Shown one piece after another: positions 52,449-62,747 of a DNA stretch of 64,000 nt. A program made the translations under genes and the position numbers. Below the pieces are notes generated by a model that did no database searches, was not told where the DNA came from, and saw only the letters and a program-made list of their open reading frames with translations. The stretch is from Negativicutes bacterium (GTDB lineage Bacteria > Bacillota > Negativicutes > UBA1444), in assembly GCA_963665275.2 (NCBI GenBank), contig CAXXIN010000016.1:192001-256000 (forward strand), read 5' to 3'. Every line of letters starts with the position of its first letter. The stretch's first letter is position 1.

Positions 52449-52661
52449 GGGGTCGCCTCTGCGGTTTTATCTGAATTAGAGAAACATGCCGTTTAGAATG
52501 ATGTGTTGCTTCTATCGACTCACGCCTCAATCACTTCCAAACCGTTTTTTGCAGCAAAGGGTTATTGGGTTGTAAGAGAACAACAAATCGAACGAGAAGA
52601 CCAAGTATTAACGAATTTTGTCATGGAAAAGCATCTCCAATCATCCGCAGCTTTTTTTTGA
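52449..52661 (+). pseudogene. GNAT acetyltransferase (YafP-like) C-terminal remnant
   Basis: GVASAVLSELEKHAV*..STHASITSKPFFAAKGY..NFVMEK, with an internal TAG. Confidence 0.7.
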
Positions 52662-52739
52662 ATCACAAACTCTATTGATTCGCAGCCCGGACCCTCCGGG
52701 CTGTTTTTATTTGCCCATCTTCCCGGCCAGCGCCAACAC

Positions 52740-53481
52740 TGAGAAACTGGAAAAGCTTTCGCCCCGTACCGTGTTGATGCTGCATCACTTCTTGAAATCA
52801 AGCTTGCAGCAAGCCGTAGAGGATGCAGTCCTTTACCGCAACCCGGCAGGGCCCCTCAAGCGCCCACGGATGAAGGCGAAAGCCGATAAGTTCTTGGAAA
52901 CGGCGACTGTGCGCAAGCTGCTGCAAGACGCCAAAGGCTACCAGAAAACACTACTGCTGCTTGCCTGGACATCAGGCATGCGCCGCGAAGAAATCTTAGG
53001 GCTTTGTTGGTCAGACTTCAAAGCAGGGAATATCACGGTACGTCGTTCCGTGAAAAAAGGTCGGATTTTATCAACGGAACATAAAACGCCGTCCGCATAC
53101 CGGACGATTCCGCTACCGGCAGAAACCATCCGGGCACTGGCGGACAAAGAAAAAGACAAACCCCAAGTAGTCAATATGACTACTCCGGATTTGATCTTTC
53201 CGGCTGAAGACGGCAAACCCATCGAACTGATGGTATTGACCCGGTATTTTTCCAGACTTTGCAAACGCTGCAAAGTTGCAGCGACGCTTCACGATCTCAG
53301 GCATACTTACGCAACCAATCTTGCTATCGCTGGCGTGCATCCCGCTAGGGCCCAATATCTGCTCGGGCATTCCAAAGCCCAAATGACCCTGAACTGCTAC
53401 ACTCATATTCGCGGTGGCGATATGACGGGGATCGCAGAAATCGTGGAAAAATCAATGGTAGTCAAGGCAGTAGTCAAATGA
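52740..53481 (+). pseudogene. N-terminally truncated phage-type tyrosine integrase
   Basis: SGMRREEILGL, KT, HDLRHTYAT, LGHS and YTH; no RBS or N-terminal arm-binding domain. Confidence 0.85.
53458..53477 (+). repeat. Integrase arm-type repeat pair
   Basis: GTAGTCAA at 53458 and 53470. Confidence 0.65.
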
Positions 53482-54029: not shown

Positions 54030-54310
54030 ATCGCCGGGATTGAACTAGCCCCGGAAGATTCTTTGAATCGCCGCGACCCTGGGTCAATCCATCCCGTTTT
54101 ATTTCATCGTCGCAGAAATGAGGAGAGAAGAAAAAAGTAAAGGGCAGAAACAGCACAAAAAATATTTTGATTGCTGTATTTTTACGCCGCGCTCAGGCAT
54201 TCAAGAAATAAATTTTAATATTAGCAGGGAATGGAAAAATGAAAGAGAATTCATGAGGTAAATTATTCTTGTTAATGTCGATTATTAAATTTATTGGAGG
54301 AAGATACTTT

Positions 54311-55810
54311 ATGGGAGCGAATTTTCGAATTTTACATTTTTCAGATTTGCATTTTTCTAATGGGCGTGATTGTCAGGCTAGTAATCACAGCCATTCCATA
54401 GATATGTGCTCTGCAATTTCTAGCTTTGTCAAAAACAATAATGATTTCGATAAAGTAATAATATCAGGAGATATCTCAGATGGTGGCGATAGAGAAAGTC
54501 TACTTACGGCCCATGACTGGATCATGCATGATATGGGTATAGGAGCCAAAGAACGGATTGGATTACGCTTAAATGATAATCCTCAAAAATTAGGAATAGT
54601 CCCAGGAAATCATGATGCTTGGAATAATAGATCGGGGGGAAAGCTGATAAGTCGGTGGCAAAAGTCATTGGAGAATTATAACAGTATTTTTTACTATACG
54701 CAGCTTGGATAAAGAGTTATCTTGTATATATGATTGGATCGAGAAAGATGGAGTAGGTGTCTTTATTGCATACGTAGATTCTTGCTATTTTGGTGACGAT
54801 GATAATAGTTTATCTGATGTTTCAGAAAGGGTCGCGAGAGGTAAATTGTCTTCTCAGCAGGCTAAAATTCTATTAAATTGGTATGATAGAGGACTTAAAG
54901 GTAAGTTGCAGAAGCCCAATGAAGAATTTATATCATCTAGCCTTTTCCGTTCAAGCTTGAAAATAGTAGTAATGCATCACTATCTTTTCGAACCGCAGGG
55001 GTTGAGTGAGGAAGGATATTTTTTAAAGATAAAAGATAAAAAAAATGTTTTTAGTAATATTGCTATGGCTGATTTTGACGTTTTGTTGTGTGGACACAGG
55101 CATATCGCTGATTCAAAAGAATCGAGCTATGGAGATCATTTCGACAGACGAGCAAGGAATCGTTATATGTTCAATTGCTTCCGTCGCTTAATGGGGATTG
55201 ATGCGTTGCCGTTACAATTTGATGACAAACAAGGAGTAAGATTAACTAAAAAATTATCGGCAGTGATCCAAATTTTATGGCGGAAGTTTAGGATGGAAAA
55301 GAGGCATAAAAACTTAGTGCAAAAATACCGCATGAGAATATAAACGATTGTTATACAGATGAATTAATTGAAGCTTTGAAGAAAGGGATTGCGAATCCAG
55401 CTGATTTTCGGCAGGAAATAAAGGAATGCTTTTTTCGACAGAGCGTTGAAATAACAGAAACTCTTGCAGATAGCGAACTTGAAGATTTGCAGATGCAATT
55501 ATATTCAAAATTTACTTCAGAAGAGAGAAAAAAATTGGCAAAAATGGCAGAAAAACTAAATAAATATATTAAGAAACTCAATTCACGACCATTCTTGCAA
55601 GTTATGGCAGGATCGGCAACGAAAGCGTCTCTTCGAAATGAAAGTGCTCGTTCTTTCAATGTATATGAAATTGATTATGATAAGATGGGCTTTAGGTTTT
55701 CAATTATACAATATGATTGGGAAGATAATAAGTTCAAAAATAGCAATACAAGAATTAATTTCAATTTTTTGGATAGCAGAAAACTTGTTTTGGAAGATGC
55801 GGAAGGCTAA
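54311..55810 (+). CDS. Calcineurin-like metallophosphoesterase with a large insertion, frameshifted
   Basis: ILHFSDLH, SGDI, VPGNHD, MHHY, CGHRH and AGSAT..SFNVYEI over three frames; AT-rich; GGAGG RBS. Confidence 0.8.
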
Positions 55811-56290: not shown

Positions 56291-57379
56291 TTATTTCAGG
56301 GTAACACCATTTTCAGGCAGAAGCACATTGAGCATAAAATCTATATGTGCCATAACTGAATCATGAAATTGTTTCCAGTCACTCTTCATAAATTCGTTGC
56401 TCATCTCAAACACCTCGTTCGGTGTGTGCCTGATATCGTCCTTACCTAAAGCAATACTTTTCCATGATCCAGGCCCTGATGAAATATAGGGAATATTTAT
56501 TTTACCAAACCCGAACCAATCTTCACTCAACGCTTGCTGCCATAATTCGTGTCTTTTATCCGCATTGTAGTGCGCAAAGCGAAGAAATGAATCCTTGAAT
56601 GCATTATATACATAATCAGGTATAACCGGTATATTTCCGTTTACATCTGATGCTTGATAGCGTTTTAGCACTATCCATATATTGGACACTGCATCCATAA
56701 ATCGCTCTATATTATGGACTCGTCCCGATGAGTTTCCTTCTCTATCTATATATTCCCACTCTAAATAAGGAATATCTGGACAGTGCAATGCCGTCAAATG
56801 CCCCAATGGAAAACGATTCATGTTGGCCGAGATTAATCTATCTGCAATATCATCCAACGGAGAAACAATCTTCAAAAAGCTATTGCCGGACTCCGAATCA
56901 AAGATATCACGCAATACATTGAGAGGGCTTACTACACCCGCAAACCCTTGATGTGCCCATGTATCAGCATATGAATGCAAGGTGATCCCCAAACGGTGTA
57001 AACTCTTATTGCCATTATTTATGCACTCGGCTACCATTTTTTGTGCAATTTCACTGTTAGGTCTACAAATCATTCTTGCCCGATACTCATATTCAGTACC
57101 CGCAAACGATCCTGGGTTGTTGCCTGGCACGAAATGAAACGGCAACCATGTATGATTATTAACCGCCTCATCCAAATTTTCATAGAACTCTTTGTTATCT
57201 GTGCACGTGACTGATCTCATGTGATAGTATGACGGCGCATTTGAAAAATAAATGAATCCACCATGGGTAGCATCGTCAACGTATTGCGAACTGTATGCAA
57301 TGGTAAAAGCATCTTCATGAGAAAATTCAGCGTACCTCGCAAGAACGTAAATAACATCAAAATGAAAGTCCTTTTGCAT
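56291..57379 (-). CDS. DUF6765-like protein (possible Zn-dependent phospholipase C/P1-nuclease-like fold)
   Basis: MQKDFH, AYSSQYVDD, PFHFVPG and LGITLHSYADTWAHQGF. Confidence 0.7.
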   Translation of the reverse strand: MQKDFHFDVIYVLARYAEFSHEDAFTIAYSSQYVDDATHGGFIYFSNAPSYYHMRSVTCTDNKEFYENLDEAVNNHTWLPFHFVPGNNPGSFAGTEYEYRARMICRPNSEIAQKMVAECINNGNKSLHRLGITLHSYADTWAHQGFAGVVSPLNVLRDIFDSESGNSFLKIVSPLDDIADRLISANMNRFPLGHLTALHCPDIPYLEWEYIDREGNSSGRVHNIERFMDAVSNIWIVLKRYQASDVNGNIPVIPDYVYNAFKDSFLRFAHYNADKRHELWQQALSEDWFGFGKINIPYISSGPGSWKSIALGKDDIRHTPNEVFEMSNEFMKSDWKQFHDSVMAHIDFMLNVLLPENGVTLK

Positions 57380-57661
57380 TTAATTTGCTCCCTTCTATAT
57401 TATTTGGTATCCACCCTTGTCATTTTCGCTGTCTTTTGCTTCTTGGCTTCACTAGAGTCCATTAACATGTAGACAGTCAGTTAATTTATAAAAAAGACCT
57501 CAGTGAAAAACACTGAAGCCCAAAAGTCTTTTAGGTTTTCAACACAAGACACGCTGTTTCATTATCAAAACTCAATTTGATCTATAGAACACAATTGAAA
57601 ACACATGGGGGGGAACCGGCATTGCGATTCTACTCAGTGATAGCTTCAGCAGTTTTGCCCA

Positions 57662-58012
57662 TTACCCAACAATTTGCATAATAAAATCTTTCCATTTTGT
57701 AAAAGTCTCAATTAGGGTCGGAGTAGTATTAATCGTTTGCATTGCCGAACCAATTCCAGCAAGAATTCCATGAACGCTTAATTTATTGCACCCTTCAGAT
57801 TTTACTTGTTCGGCAACCTGTGTCACCGCCGAAGAAATCTCGTTTTTCTTTTCACCTGGAGCGTTAGCAGATTGTATTATTTTGAGAAGCTCTTGCGTAA
57901 TATCTATCAGTTGCTGCTCTTGTCTATTATCGTTTATAACATTATCAGAGCCCAAACTCATATTTCCTTTGTTGCCGGTAACTGTTACTCCACCGAAATT
58001 ATTATTTGTCAT
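57662..58012 (-). CDS. Small protein: N/G-rich N-terminal motif plus an amphipathic helical domain
   Basis: GGGGG RBS before ATG 58012; the frame is open upstream as far as the A9 run at 58162-58170. Confidence 0.7.
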   Translation of the reverse strand: MTNNNFGGVTVTGNKGNMSLGSDNVINDNRQEQQLIDITQELLKIIQSANAPGEKKNEISSAVTQVAEQVKSEGCNKLSVHGILAGIGSAMQTINTTPTLIETFTKWKDFIMQIVG

Positions 58013-58131
58013 AGCACAACCCCCAACCGCCGCAACCGGGCCATTAATAATAATCTGAACTCCGGGAAACCCTGCTAAGGTACGGACAACTCCATCAGAC
58101 AGTAACTCTGGGCAAGTGATCGGTACTGGAC

Positions 58132-58527
58132 TCACATCTGCAAAAGATTGGCCATTGGATGTTTTTTTTTACCCCCTTGTCCCGCCTGTTGTACTAACCG
58201 CTCTTTATAATCACGACAAACCTCGAAAACTGGAAATACAAGCTCGCCGGTTACGTCAATATCTTCACCACAAGCACATTCCATCACGATATCCGATAAA
58301 GACGGCATGCAATCAACGATTTCAACCGTCCGTGCACATCCGTCTCGTGGGCATCTTATCTCCCAGCGCAATTGAAGTTTACCATCTTTAGCAAGCTTCA
58401 ATAACCGTTCAAAGACATCAGACAAAGGTAAACCCGTAAGTTTAGCCACATACGTCGGATAGAAACGAACAATTCTTGACGCAGCAATATCATCAACAGC
58501 ATCATCGATATCCCACTGTATTGTCAT
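58132..58527 (-). CDS. Winged-helix-like plus zinc-ribbon protein
   Basis: GGAGG RBS; RFYPTYVAKLTG..VFERLLKL, CPRDGC and CACG. Confidence 0.78.
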   Translation of the reverse strand: MTIQWDIDDAVDDIAASRIVRFYPTYVAKLTGLPLSDVFERLLKLAKDGKLQLRWEIRCPRDGCARTVEIVDCMPSLSDIVMECACGEDIDVTGELVFPVFEVCRDYKERLVQQAGQGGKKKHPMANLLQM

Positions 58528-58558
58528 TCACGGTCACCTCCGATGCACAATTTTCCCA

Positions 58559-59650
58559 TTATAAAATTATAACATTTTCCCGGACATACTTAACCGCTTT
58601 TTCAGTTGCTGACGTAAGAAATTGAATGCTATTTGTTGTAACCCCAACTCGAATCGTACAGTTTTCTGCAAACGGAATTTCGCCAATCGAAAAATTGATG
58701 TATCCGCCTTGTTGTTGCACGTGTGGCTTTAAATAATTAAAGAAAGCATGGTCTCGTAAATCGCTTTTACCCCCAAGGCCAACTTTTTCGAGCCCACTTA
58801 AAAACATTGTGGTAAATAATGTCCCCTGCGCTAAATCCAATTCCTGTTTTGCGGCTTGAAGGTTTCCTTCTAAAGAACGAATATCATCATCAAGAAAATA
58901 GGCATCAATTGCTGTAATGATCGCAATCAGATTTTTTGTTTCCTGGCCAGAAATATCTCCAATATTTGTTTCTGGCTTTGAAGTCGATTCGGTAAGTATT
59001 CCACCCAGCTTGTCTGCAATTGCACCAATATTCTTTCCATCTTTATCAACAATGTTCCGGGGGGTTATTGCAGTGTGTTGTTCAATCATTCCTGCTATCG
59101 TTGAGGCAAATTTTTTTGCAGAATTTGCCTCCGTTCTTATTTCAATGCAATTACTATCTTCATTCATATATACGGTTACAACTTTGGTAATCGGAATCAC
59201 TTCTCGCTGACTTCCAGAGAATTTGTTTATCGTCCCGATTTTATGAACAAACCGCAAATAATATTCTTCTTTTGACTGCCCCTCAATTGCCGATATCAAT
59301 ATTGGACTTTCAGTTATTTTTCCGGTGTCCGGCATCACTGCCTTTGAGAAAGGATTGAAGCGGGCTTTAGCCAATATTTTTTCTCTTGATCCCTTTAATG
59401 TTGCTCCGCCTTCGAGGTAATACCAAGTAACTGAGGTTTTCCCGCACAACGCCATTTCTTCATATTCTTTTAGGACAGCCTCTTTTCTATTTTTGTTTTC
59501 GCGAAGGAAGGCCCATATCCGCCCGCTCAATTCGGACTGCAAACCCTTTGGAGACAATTTTAATTCATTGCATATATCGACAAGGCTCTTTTTTGATAGG
59601 CGCTGCAAATCACTTTCGAGAATAGCCTCGGCTATTTTCAACAGAATCAA
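58559..59650 (-). CDS. Hypothetical protein with an N-terminal SAP-like motif
   Basis: 363-aa ORF with LSKKSLVDICNELKLSPKGLQSELSGRIW; the true start may be TTG 59641. Confidence 0.75.
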   Translation of the reverse strand: MILLKIAEAILESDLQRLSKKSLVDICNELKLSPKGLQSELSGRIWAFLRENKNRKEAVLKEYEEMALCGKTSVTWYYLEGGATLKGSREKILAKARFNPFSKAVMPDTGKITESPILISAIEGQSKEEYYLRFVHKIGTINKFSGSQREVIPITKVVTVYMNEDSNCIEIRTEANSAKKFASTIAGMIEQHTAITPRNIVDKDGKNIGAIADKLGGILTESTSKPETNIGDISGQETKNLIAIITAIDAYFLDDDIRSLEGNLQAAKQELDLAQGTLFTTMFLSGLEKVGLGGKSDLRDHAFFNYLKPHVQQQGGYINFSIGEIPFAENCTIRVGVTTNSIQFLTSATEKAVKYVRENVIIL

Positions 59651-59822
59651 CTCCTGGTTATTTAATTTCCATTCATACTTTTCGTTTTCGTCTTATGATT
59701 TTCATTTATTTTCAAAAAATTATATTACATCAGATTATCCTTGCAGGAGGCGACACATGTATAGCCTACCGAGGCGATCCCGCAGGGTAAATCCTCTCGC
59801 GCTTCGCCACCCAGAGCAGATT

Positions 59823-59896
59823 GTATCAGGGTGTTTCCCTGTATTTTTTTGATTTTCGCCACCATCAAAAAGTTCACAATTTGTTCGCTTTACATG
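59823..59896 (+). repeat. Direct repeat copy 1, flanking the membrane-protein pair
   Basis: 59851-59889 matches 62701-62739 at 35 of 39 positions and is preceded by a hairpin. Confidence 0.75.
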
Positions 59897-59922: not shown

Positions 59923-61125
59923 TTATGGCACGATTTTTATTATCAGATCTGTCGTCTTAACCCATGCATATACCCTGTTATCGCCTCGAATAAAATCTGA
60001 AGAGGTTTTTAATTTCTCAAGAGAATTTAGGGATTTCAGCAGGTTAGTTAGATGGTAGGTATTCTCAGGACTTTCTTCAGAGCTTTCTCGGAGCTGGCTT
60101 TCGATGGTGTTTTTGAGCGTTTGTTCAAGCCACACATAATCTTTCATTTTTATTTTTTCCATAGCGGCAACAAAGATTGCCTGTTTGTCATCAGTATGTC
60201 CCAGTTGATACACCACACCTCTTATTATTGCCATATAACGAATATAGGGCGGAAGGCCAATGTTGCTGCTAACTTGAAAGCAATAAAACGAGGCCTTAAA
60301 ATAGTTAGGGGGGGATTGATTTAAAGCAGCGTCAATTTCTTTTTTGGCGGAGCTAGCTTCGTAAATTGCAAATGCCTTGGGGAAGCTTGGAGAAACGCAG
60401 ATTAATTGTTGTGCTGTAATGAAAATAATAATTGAATAGGTTACTATCTTAATTATTATTTTGGGTTTAATTACGGTTTGTAGCTGTAGCCCGATGCAAA
60501 ATACTCTTGTCCATAGTATCAAAGAAACCATATAGAAAAGCATCTTAACAAATAATAATGGGCCGAAGTACCTAATAAGTGCGAAAATGAATGTGCTTAC
60601 TAAATCATCTTGGGACATTGATTGGTCGGGGTTGAGAAGCGGTTTTTCGAAGAGCCAATGTTCAATAGGGCTATAAATAAAGCTGTCTAGAAACGTCAAG
60701 GGAACAAGCAATCCGCTAGCGTAGAAGAATGATCTAAAAAGTTTCTGGTATTGCCACTGCCATTTTACCAATCTCCGACTCACAAGTTGCAGTATAAGTA
60801 TAAAAATAATAAAACCAGCAAAGAACAATAAAGGCTCAAAGAACAGCGTGTCCAGAGTAATAGGGGTCTTAATAGTTATAGCGGACAAGGTGTCCTTTAT
60901 TTTTTCGGTTTTTATAAAAGAACTCACAGCAGAAGAAAAAATGACATTTAAAACAAAGAAAAAAACAGGCGTAACAACATAGAAAGAAGGGTTGTTCAAA
61001 AGAAACTGCAGGGTCTTTTGTGGGGAAAAAGTTATTCTCTTGATTAAGATACAATAATCGATGATAGCTTGAATAAGCACTTCTGTTTTCTTAAGAATTC
61101 GATCTTCATAGGACACGCGATACAC
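59923..61125 (-). CDS. Polytopic membrane protein (Yip1-like N-terminus, soluble C-terminus)
   Basis: 400-aa AT-rich ORF with about five hydrophobic segments. Confidence 0.7.
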   Translation of the reverse strand: MYRVSYEDRILKKTEVLIQAIIDYCILIKRITFSPQKTLQFLLNNPSFYVVTPVFFFVLNVIFSSAVSSFIKTEKIKDTLSAITIKTPITLDTLFFEPLLFFAGFIIFILILQLVSRRLVKWQWQYQKLFRSFFYASGLLVPLTFLDSFIYSPIEHWLFEKPLLNPDQSMSQDDLVSTFIFALIRYFGPLLFVKMLFYMVSLILWTRVFCIGLQLQTVIKPKIIIKIVTYSIIIFITAQQLICVSPSFPKAFAIYEASSAKKEIDAALNQSPPNYFKASFYCFQVSSNIGLPPYIRYMAIIRGVVYQLGHTDDKQAIFVAAMEKIKMKDYVWLEQTLKNTIESQLRESSEESPENTYHLTNLLKSLNSLEKLKTSSDFIRGDNRVYAWVKTTDLIIKIVP

Positions 61126-61148: not shown

Positions 61149-62423
61149 TTAATTATTGGGATAGGGAAGTATTTTATAATAATGTACAGGCAAATACTTC
61201 TCAATCTTTTTGAGAAAATCTAAGTAGGAGAAAGTTGCATTTGTTACCTCAATATGACTATCAAGCATTTTGCTGAAGTCATTATTCATTTTTATTTTTA
61301 ATTCATGTATATCTATTTGATGTTCATTTATTACTATTTTTCTTACTAGCTGCATTACTTTAGTAGCATCACTTGTAGGAGCTTCGAGGCTTTTACGCTT
61401 TGTAATTGATAGGTTTTCATAATCTAAGGAAGAGATGATAGTCAGTGTTTTATCATAATCATCTAGGAAATCGTTATATTGAGTATATGTTTCTATATTC
61501 TTATGAAGGAAATATCTATTTTTATTAAACATAGATTGATTAAGCTTCTTCTCTAACTTGTCGATATTTTTGCCTACCTTGGAGTTTTCCTTTTCTTTGT
61601 CCAACTTCCACATATATAAAAGTTGTTGTATTCTATTCGTAGCAAGAAAAAACTCCGCTTCACTTGAAATAGATGGTTCGCTTTTAATATAGGAGAGAAT
61701 TGAATTAACTGGTTCCTCAATTTGCTTATATTTTGAATGAGCAGAATTCACTATTGCGTTTGCATTATTGGTCTCATTGAAACATTCTAAGGTATAGAAC
61801 TCTGATGCGATTGGGTCTTCAAAAGCCATCAGTATATGTTTGGGGATATGAATATTTATATCGAAGTATGAAACCATAAATACAAGGACTATTCCAGTTG
61901 CTACAATCGTTAATCCACTAAGTACTTGCTTAAGCCTACTTTGAAAAAATAGCAAAACAAACTTGCCGACAAGAAAGAAAATAAAAACAATGATTGACAC
62001 TTCATATAAGAAATAAAAGAAATAACTTTCAGTATGAATGAAAGCTGATAACATAAGCAGCGGGATACTTCCGGTTATTGTCTGTTGGAAAACTACATAA
62101 TTCAAGCACACTTTTATCTTATTACCAAAATTTGAAAACAACATGGCTATAAGATACCCGAGCGACATAATCGGTAATTGAAACAATAGTAATCGTGCAT
62201 TAGCAATCAAGGAGTAGTCAAACGTAGGATTTTCAGATAAGAAGTATGTTTGTATTATGATAAAAAAAGCTATATATATGATTAATCTGTATGCATTAGC
62301 AATGAAGTTCTCATGTATTATTTTTTCAAAATACTTATTTCCATCCAGATAAAAAAGCAAGACATCATGTATAAATTTATTAACTTCAGCGAGGAGCTCA
62401 CGTGTTATTTTAAAAAAATCCAT
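61149..62423 (-). CDS. Polytopic membrane protein with a coiled-coil C-terminal domain
   Basis: 424-aa AT-rich ORF with about five TM segments; GGGGG RBS. Confidence 0.72.
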   Translation of the reverse strand: MDFFKITRELLAEVNKFIHDVLLFYLDGNKYFEKIIHENFIANAYRLIIYIAFFIIIQTYFLSENPTFDYSLIANARLLLFQLPIMSLGYLIAMLFSNFGNKIKVCLNYVVFQQTITGSIPLLMLSAFIHTESYFFYFLYEVSIIVFIFFLVGKFVLLFFQSRLKQVLSGLTIVATGIVLVFMVSYFDINIHIPKHILMAFEDPIASEFYTLECFNETNNANAIVNSAHSKYKQIEEPVNSILSYIKSEPSISSEAEFFLATNRIQQLLYMWKLDKEKENSKVGKNIDKLEKKLNQSMFNKNRYFLHKNIETYTQYNDFLDDYDKTLTIISSLDYENLSITKRKSLEAPTSDATKVMQLVRKIVINEHQIDIHELKIKMNNDFSKMLDSHIEVTNATFSYLDFLKKIEKYLPVHYYKILPYPNN

Positions 62424-62671: not shown

Positions 62672-62747
62672 GTACCGGGCAGTTTGCCCGGTGCTTTTCT
62701 GGTTTTCGCCACCATCAATAATTTAACAATTTGTTCGCTGTCACATG
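62672..62747 (+). repeat. Direct repeat copy 2
   Basis: Hairpin GTACCGGGC-AGTTT-GCCCGGTGC, followed by the conserved 39-mer. Confidence 0.75.

Follow-up and report, generated by a model that had tools for sequence, protein, structure and literature searches.

Three tightly spaced genes on the minus strand of a Negativicutes contig (GenBank assembly GCA_963665275.2, contig CAXXIN010000016.1) were found to form a self-contained mobile accessory operon, which is carried mainly by temperate phages of Bacillota. The 64,000-nt stretch that was analysed (positions 192,001 to 256,000 of the contig) is called the window below, and unless a locus is named all coordinates refer to it. The genes are designated A (58559..59650), B (58132..58527) and C (57662..58135). 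Since the trio is shared on mobile DNA and combines a DNA-clamp-like protein (A) with a zinc-ribbon protein (B) and a helical protein related to part of a known abortive infection (Abi) system (C), it is probably a previously undescribed anti-phage module; for an anti-phage effect of the abortive-infection or exclusion type, which we infer, the chances are judged to be about even.

Organization of the operon

All three minus-strand open reading frames (ORFs) of the initial annotation were present in the window, but two of their starts were revised. Gene A gives the 363 aa annotated earlier when read from its first TTG; a second TTG at 59641 is preceded at a distance of 9 nt by an AGGAG ribosome-binding site (RBS) and would yield a protein as long as the database copy of A (P0001, 360 aa); this is the probable true start. 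Gene B (131 aa) starts with ATG behind a GGAGG RBS. Gene C starts with a GTG that overlaps the stop codon of gene B (GTGA) and encodes 157 aa. The 116-aa version of protein C annotated earlier begins at an internal ATG (58012). A length of 157 aa, or of about 148 aa to judge from the database copy P0145, is more likely, since homologues share the N-terminal stretch of the longer frame and the linker of a natural B-C fusion aligns with it. A candidate sigma-70-like promoter on the same strand (59734..59763, TATACA-18-GATAAT) was detected by a consensus scan as a weak pattern match (9/12) within the 272-nt AT-rich gap preceding gene A. The consensus scan and the sequence also pointed to a terminator-like (intrinsic) hairpin of 11 pairs followed by a T run (57495..57521, minus strand), about 140 nt past the stop codon of gene C and thus between the trio and the next gene (57379..56291). 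With its promoter-like site, RBSs, GTGA overlap and terminator-like hairpin, the trio reads as one transcription unit.

Conservation of the trio and gene fusions

A profile search with protein A among 1.84 billion representatives detected 140 relatives at E ≤ 1e-3, of which 81 remained at E ≤ 1e-30, and nearly all were 350–380 aa long. Protein A also matched phrog_38742 (E 2.7e-32), to which no function is assigned. A word-index homologue search detected two relatives of A and one of C, and its extension with the C alignment gave none. No match was found in GenBank phages by tblastn with the A proteins of the window and of loci L005 and L003. Fifteen further loci were compared with the window: L002 from species genomes, L003–L006 from IMG/VR, L007–L011 from metagenomes and L018–L022 from genomes of the window's class. 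The trio was spread patchily: of 400 further genomes belonging to the class of the window, 5 carried it, and none of the 11 genomes from its genus did.

A gene B homologue followed gene A in all 16 distinct loci, including the window. One contig (L009) ends within gene B, and in 12 of the 15 loci having downstream DNA a C-like protein was encoded next, recognized by hidden Markov model (HMM) in 11 and by PADLOC in L022. The remaining three (L005, L006 and L010) contained a tail or ORF of similar size in the position of C, showing no detectable similarity to it. Fusions were found on both sides of B. In L011, B and C form one 285-aa polypeptide, the C part of which was detected both by HMM and by PADLOC, and the 258-aa proteins of L005 and L006 consist of B and an extension of similar length that is not detectably C-like. 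Four relatives of A (P0102, P0106, P0118 and P0120; 505–525 aa) continue into a B-like tail, whose similarity to B, though weak, was seen consistently in BLASTP (E 2e-4) and in hhalign (E 1.3e-4 and 1.8e-3); a pattern scan for this A-B fusion group matched no viral contig. Co-occurrence of the three genes in other genomes was thus seen for A and B throughout and for C in most loci, and there is now evidence that A, B and C are a conserved, sometimes fused, mobile module.

Genomic location of the trio

Phage lysis genes were located 0.4–1.9 kb upstream of the trio in 5 of the 15 other loci (L004–L008) and at a distance of 5.4 kb in L018. On the phage contig L003 the trio precedes the terminase gene, and in L022 the trio adjoins a large serine recombinase gene. 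In L002, a gene for a CI/LexA-like S24 repressor is located 0.8 kb upstream on the same strand, and genes for a SNF2 helicase (DpdE/ZorD-like), a radical-SAM protein and a mad3-like ATPase are found downstream. The trio of L021 is situated between housekeeping genes, and the island in the window contains no phage structural genes. Among 118 proteins encoded within 6 kb of 14 trio loci, plausible defence genes were found in three loci: L002, L003 (TIR-like) and L008 (Mrr-like and SspH-like). The enrichment in defence islands that could be expected from the initial annotation was therefore modest. The trio shows the pattern of a mobile accessory "moron", and its link to prophage ends is stronger than its link to classical defence islands.

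Two of the locations deserve description in their own right. In L020 (G160:C1, 9751–13506), the trio and an IS3-family transposase pair are inserted between sigE (which follows spoIIGA) and sigG, an unusual site for cargo. In L005 (8847–11066) and L006 (8682–11893), Y-family DNA polymerase genes follow the trio, together with LexA in L005 or Ku and LigD in L006; these two are related phage-like contigs, and the repair genes could represent either a host flank or a link to DNA damage.

Protein A: a SAP domain and an RdgC-like body

The AlphaFold2 model of protein A, built on a 91-row alignment, was of high quality (predicted local distance difference test, pLDDT, 95.5; predicted template modelling score, pTM, 0.91). 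Residues E170 and R172 of A were invariant in 91 sequences. The SAP-like motif of the initial annotation was confirmed as a SAP domain at residues 3–66 of the model, where the N-terminus shows the helix-extended-helix motif of about 35–50 residues typical of SAP. Residues 68–363 matched Escherichia coli RdgC in structure comparison, and the predicted body shows the three-part fold of RdgC, consisting of base, centre and tip. In Foldseek the model matched RdgC and CENP-N at E of about 3e-4; structures of RdgC and Iml3 were matched, with no RexA chain among the 50 matches listed. BFVD matches were phage proteins annotated as RdgC or "exonuclease". The RdgC family (PF04381) was not matched by A in Pfam at E ≤ 0.1, and a sequence search of the PDB with profiles of A, B and C gave nothing significant. 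By its model, A has a fold of DNA-binding type, with a SAP domain in front of an RdgC-like body.

The fold also suits an explanation without defence, namely that the trio is a prophage regulator of DNA transactions or lysogeny, in which A would dampen RecA and recombination in the manner of RdgC, or tune the switch between lysogeny and lysis as a RexA without RexB, and B and C would be DNA-binding or regulatory cofactors. RdgC is the closest solved fold to A among the matches listed, and RdgC-annotated proteins of similar fold are found in lytic as well as temperate phages. According to PMC11077077, RexA tunes the lambda switch independently of RexB. The trio of L002 follows the CI/LexA-like S24 repressor in the same orientation, and those of L005 and L006 are beside Y-family polymerase, LexA, Ku and LigD genes, although these repair genes may be host flanks of related phages. 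However, the trio is also present outside prophages (L020, L021 and the island of the window), where there would be no switch for such a regulator to act on, and the domain family of C is otherwise found in Abi and defence-candidate proteins and in defence islands. We consider regulation unlikely, but the main competitor.

Protein B: a zinc ribbon

The cysteine pattern that had been annotated for B (CxxxxC/CxC) is present as C59-x4-C64 and C84-x-C86. Protein B consists of an N-terminal FYP/L..L region, the cysteine zinc ribbon (CPxxxC ... CxC) and a basic tail, and its homologues share "WE.RCP..C ... C.CG" and the basic tail. In an alignment of 15 sequences F22, Y23, P24, L42, E56 and C59 were invariant, and C84 and C86 were conserved in at least 90%. 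Members matched several zinc-ribbon families of Pfam (among them IBR, 6 of 15, and Zn_ribbon_3, 4 of 15) and DUF5939, in each case weakly. In the ESM Atlas, only weak leads were obtained for B (DUF5939 and a cluster named RpoP). The conserved cysteines and the weak family matches therefore support a zinc ribbon in B; the winged helix that the initial annotation gave to this protein is conjectural.

Protein C: a bundle related to PDC-M14B and probably to AbiTi

The helical character previously described for C holds for residues 69–157, which form a four-helix bundle in the AlphaFold2 model (pLDDT 81–91); residues 1–68 were disordered in the model. An Asn/Gly-rich stretch of about 25 residues (N.FGGV.V...G....GSDN.I.N; about 44–68 in the C protein of the window) precedes the bundle in every branch of the family and is left disordered by AlphaFold (pLDDT < 50). 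The unit common to all C-like domains consists of this stretch followed by helices with a conserved P-N/K-K loop, to which K118 of the C protein in the window belongs.

By sequence, the bundle is of the type found at the C-terminus of PDC-M14B and probably, through intermediates, in AbiTi. Residues 50–155 of the window's C protein matched positions 154–265 of the 267 positions of the PDC-M14B profile of PADLOC (E 3.6e-7), and of 12 C and B-C proteins compared with PADLOC, 7 matched the same C-terminal domain, the best of them at E 2.8e-11. When 13 C proteins from trios were aligned by hhalign to six C-like domains from outside trios (PDC-M14B and AbiTii-fused), the match was 97% (E 8.1e-11). 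The non-trio loci were obtained by a search for PDC-M14B in the 400 genomes of the class, followed by examination of the loci. True PDC-M14 consists of PDC-M14A, a zinc-ribbon protein of 152–156 aa, and PDC-M14B (262–288 aa), the two genes overlapping at the start of PDC-M14B, and true PDC-M14B proteins matched the PADLOC profile from end to end. In L036 (6246–7139, minus strand) a C-like domain is fused behind AbiTii (E 1.2e-49; PF18864, E 3.1e-46) and also matched the AbiTi model (E 2.3e-7); its neighbours are a PD-T4-6-like kinase and PDC-S31. Among plasmids, 143 records contained this single-chain form of AbiTii and C-like domain, and most of them came from Proteobacteria. A 276-aa protein with a C-like C-terminal domain is encoded beside SngABC and Dsr1 in L035, and in L039 (290–1174, minus strand) the C-like domain follows one or two regions that by eye resemble winged helix-turn-helix (wHTH) domains. 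The same domain is thus found behind four different front ends (AbiTii, the N-domain of PDC-M14B, wHTH, and B with A), which marks the bundle as a conserved effector or signalling part and suggests that the C-like domain may be a swappable output module.

Of the loci with PDC-M14, L032 (G376:C38, 1171–12997) was observed to be a dense defence island, in which Ppl-like, PifA-like, PDC-M14A/B, IetS/IetA-like and AbiO/Nhi-like genes are arranged in a row. Among other sources, the ESM Atlas gave only weak leads for C (TCAD2 and DUF4404). Assignment of C to a HEPN or RNase domain was considered and rejected, as neither a conserved Rx4-6H motif nor a conserved His was present. Fusion to HEPN domains is frequent among homologues of AbiTii (Anantharaman et al., 2013; PMC3710099), and for AbiTi an activity like that of an RNase has been proposed, on a weak structural match only.

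The relatives of C are also the point at which a toxin-antitoxin-like addiction or stabilization cassette has to be considered, in which C or B-C would be the growth inhibitor and A the DNA-binding antidote or autoregulator, without any dedicated anti-phage role. Abi systems often behave as toxin-antitoxin pairs, and C-domain relatives belong to Abi systems; the small, tightly coupled operon with overlapping genes and the patchy, mobile-element-linked distribution would also suit such a cassette. On the other hand, known antitoxins do not resemble a SAP-RdgC-fold protein of 360 aa, searches of Pfam, NCBIfam and PADLOC revealed no toxin family, and the B-C and probable A-B fusions sit badly with the design of a labile antitoxin. 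A mere addiction function is accordingly regarded as improbable.

The membrane-active effector proposed in the initial annotation was not upheld. Protein C ends in two moderately hydrophobic helices rich in Gly, Ala and Ile (e.g., GILAGIGSAM), and A has an RdgC-like fold, the published fold type of RexA; it could thus be imagined that the operon is Rex-like and that C is an amphipathic or pore-forming helix that depolarizes the cell, as is thought for RexB. However, the maxima of 19-residue Kyte-Doolittle windows ranged from 0.6 to 1.5 in the C family, compared to 2.6–2.8 in neighbouring membrane proteins, and none of the 18 C-family sequences had a window above 1.5. In the model (pLDDT 81–91) the final helices pack into a soluble-looking bundle. 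RexB is a polytopic membrane protein, whereas B and C are not by hydropathy, as judged from the window scan for C and from the overall grand average of hydropathy (GRAVY, -0.08) alone for B. The low hydropathy of the C family therefore leaves a membrane-active effector unsupported and the trio without an equivalent of RexB, and depolarization of the cell by C is considered very improbable.

Comparison with known systems

The statement that the trio matches no named defence system was correct for the trio as a whole but not for the C domain: the PADLOC analysis returned nothing for A or B, and PDC-M14B, a candidate system, for C. Literature searches on PDC-M14 and on RdgC- or RexA-like phage and defence proteins revealed no description of such a trio.

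Like the Rex systems (lambda RexA/RexB and the Rex-like systems of actinobacteriophages), the trio is an accessory operon carried by prophages, and in L002 it follows a CI-like repressor gene, as rexAB does. The large subunits of both may share a fold of the RdgC or Iml3-Chl4 type, which is predicted for A and published for RexA; according to PMC11077077, RexA is a dimeric, non-specific DNA binder with RdgC and Iml3 as fold relatives and modulates the lambda switch without need of RexB. The two systems differ in that the sequence of A is not similar to that of RexA (hhalign probability 0.3%) and that zinc-ribbon and soluble-looking bundle proteins are found in place of a polytopic membrane partner of the RexB kind; the two membrane-protein genes upstream of the trio in the window were absent from the other loci. 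In addition, the trio is usually located after the lysis cassette, whereas rexAB is located in the immunity region. From the recombination-associated nucleoid protein RdgC of E. coli (PF04381), A differs by the lack of a Pfam match (hhalign probability 0.4%), by the extra N-terminal SAP domain and by being encoded with two obligate partners on mobile Bacillota DNA, whereas RdgC is a lone housekeeping gene. The kinetochore proteins CENP-L/CENP-N (Iml3/Chl4) resemble A at the level of the fold only; they are eukaryotic heterodimers that share no sequence similarity with it.

AbiT is an experimentally characterized lactococcal Abi system, as described in PMC13064643. The bundle of C and the AbiTii-fused domain of L036, which matched the AbiTi model, are members of one domain family, and the YicC structure 8VER was the weak best match both of the C model and of the AbiTi model published there. 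On the other hand, no AbiTii domain (PF18864) was detected in A, B or C by Pfam or PADLOC, the C protein of the window has no direct AbiTi match, and it is accompanied by proteins of other kinds, one with a SAP-RdgC fold and one with a zinc ribbon. Similarity to PDC-M14 was seen in the small zinc-ribbon protein, the overlapping start and a partner ending in an Asn/Gly-rich stretch and a four-helix bundle. However, C covers only the last approximately 110 of the 267 PDC-M14B profile positions, B reached a probability of only 10% against PDC-M14A in hhalign (over the zinc-ribbon cysteines alone) and had no PADLOC match, and a gene like A is missing from PDC-M14. The system itself has only candidate status, and no paper mentioning it was found. 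As no named system fits, the trio is classed with the Abi and Rex-type systems of prophages.

Proposed mode of action

The arrangement of sensor, adaptor and effector suggested in the initial annotation is plausible, with support from homology and genomic context, once the membrane-active part is removed from it. Protein A, with its SAP domain and RdgC-like fold, would bind DNA, perhaps as a ring- or horseshoe-shaped dimer like those of RdgC, RexA or Iml3-Chl4; the signal to which it responds would be foreign or replicating phage DNA. The zinc-ribbon protein B would connect A to C, a role proposed because B is found fused to either of them in other genomes, and the bundle of C would be the output domain that stops phage growth once it is released or activated. 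DNA binding by A, contact between A, B and C, the order from sensor over adaptor to effector, the anti-phage effect and the biochemistry of the bundle are what we infer from these comparisons. The more specific proposal of a three-component Abi system, in which a SAP-RdgC/RexA-fold DNA clamp and a zinc-ribbon adaptor operate an AbiTi-type output bundle common to AbiT, PDC-M14 and L039, is somewhat more tentative, and we place it a little below an even chance. Prediction of an A+B+C complex with B as partner gave a score of 0.29 (mark 0.32), which counts neither for nor against binding.

Several results weigh against an anti-phage function. Known defence genes were near the trio in only three loci, and the association with defence islands is correspondingly modest. 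In hhalign, the 91-row profile of A reached E. coli RdgC and lambda RexA only at the very low values given above. Neither A nor B matched a model of PADLOC v2, for which 12 A proteins were examined, or of NCBIfam 20.0, no enzymatic or pore-forming domain was recognized in A, B or C, and the C protein of the window had no direct match to the AbiTi model at E ≤ 0.1, so that this link is made through intermediates. Moreover, RdgC-fold proteins take part in recombination in lytic phages and in the control of lysogeny in lambda, and the fold therefore fits roles outside defence equally well.

Surrounding region of the window

The trio is located in an AT-rich island, as had been annotated, with a GC content of 0.31–0.43 over 54–63 kb compared to about 0.5 around it. 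The integrase and attachment (att) site that the initial annotation placed before the trio were recovered in part. A tyrosine integrase ORF is present on the plus strand (52618–53481; Phage_integrase catalytic domain, E 3.6e-24), about 4.2 kb from the end of gene C and separated from it by other genes, but neither a tRNA gene nor an att repeat flanking the island was found. The first approximately 45 residues of the integrase had no match at all, and no core-binding N-domain was matched; the ORF may be truncated or mis-started.

Two genes on the minus strand 5′ of gene A (59923–61125 and 61149–62423) encode multi-pass membrane proteins as judged by hydropathy. Both are bracketed by a 56-nt direct repeat (84% identity; 59834–59889 and 62684–62739), one copy of which is located about 185 nt upstream of gene A and the other at the right edge of the island; a third copy was sought near the integrase and not found. 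The repeat may be a duplicated att or regulatory site resulting from stepwise accretion. A gene for a calcineurin-like metallophosphoesterase (54269–55343, plus strand) is split into two overlapping ORFs of 147 and 212 aa in different frames, with weak similarity to the anti-phage phosphoesterases DS9_1 and DS8 of NCBIfam and to PDC-S60 of PADLOC, and is probably a frameshifted gene of defence type. Directly past the terminator of the trio, a full-length DUF6765 gene is present on the minus strand (56291–57379; E 8.4e-85), and it was beside the trio in none of the other loci examined. The DUF6765 gene, the two membrane-protein genes and the split phosphoesterase were considered as parts of the system and rejected, since they are absent from the other loci and are divided from the trio by the terminator or by gaps.

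Implications

The question of how RexA senses infection goes back to Benzer's work on rII. If the trio is a defence system, it would extend the defence repertoire of Bacillota prophages by a compact system of three genes, and it would provide a second, unrelated case in which a protein of RdgC fold is linked to a module for killing or arrest, which would bear on the Rex problem. It would also give a working handle on the mechanism of AbiTi and PDC-M14B. Even if its role lies outside defence, the SAP-RdgC-fold family is predicted with very high confidence, comprises about 140 clusters and comes with two obligate partners, so that studies of its structure and of DNA binding have a defined object.

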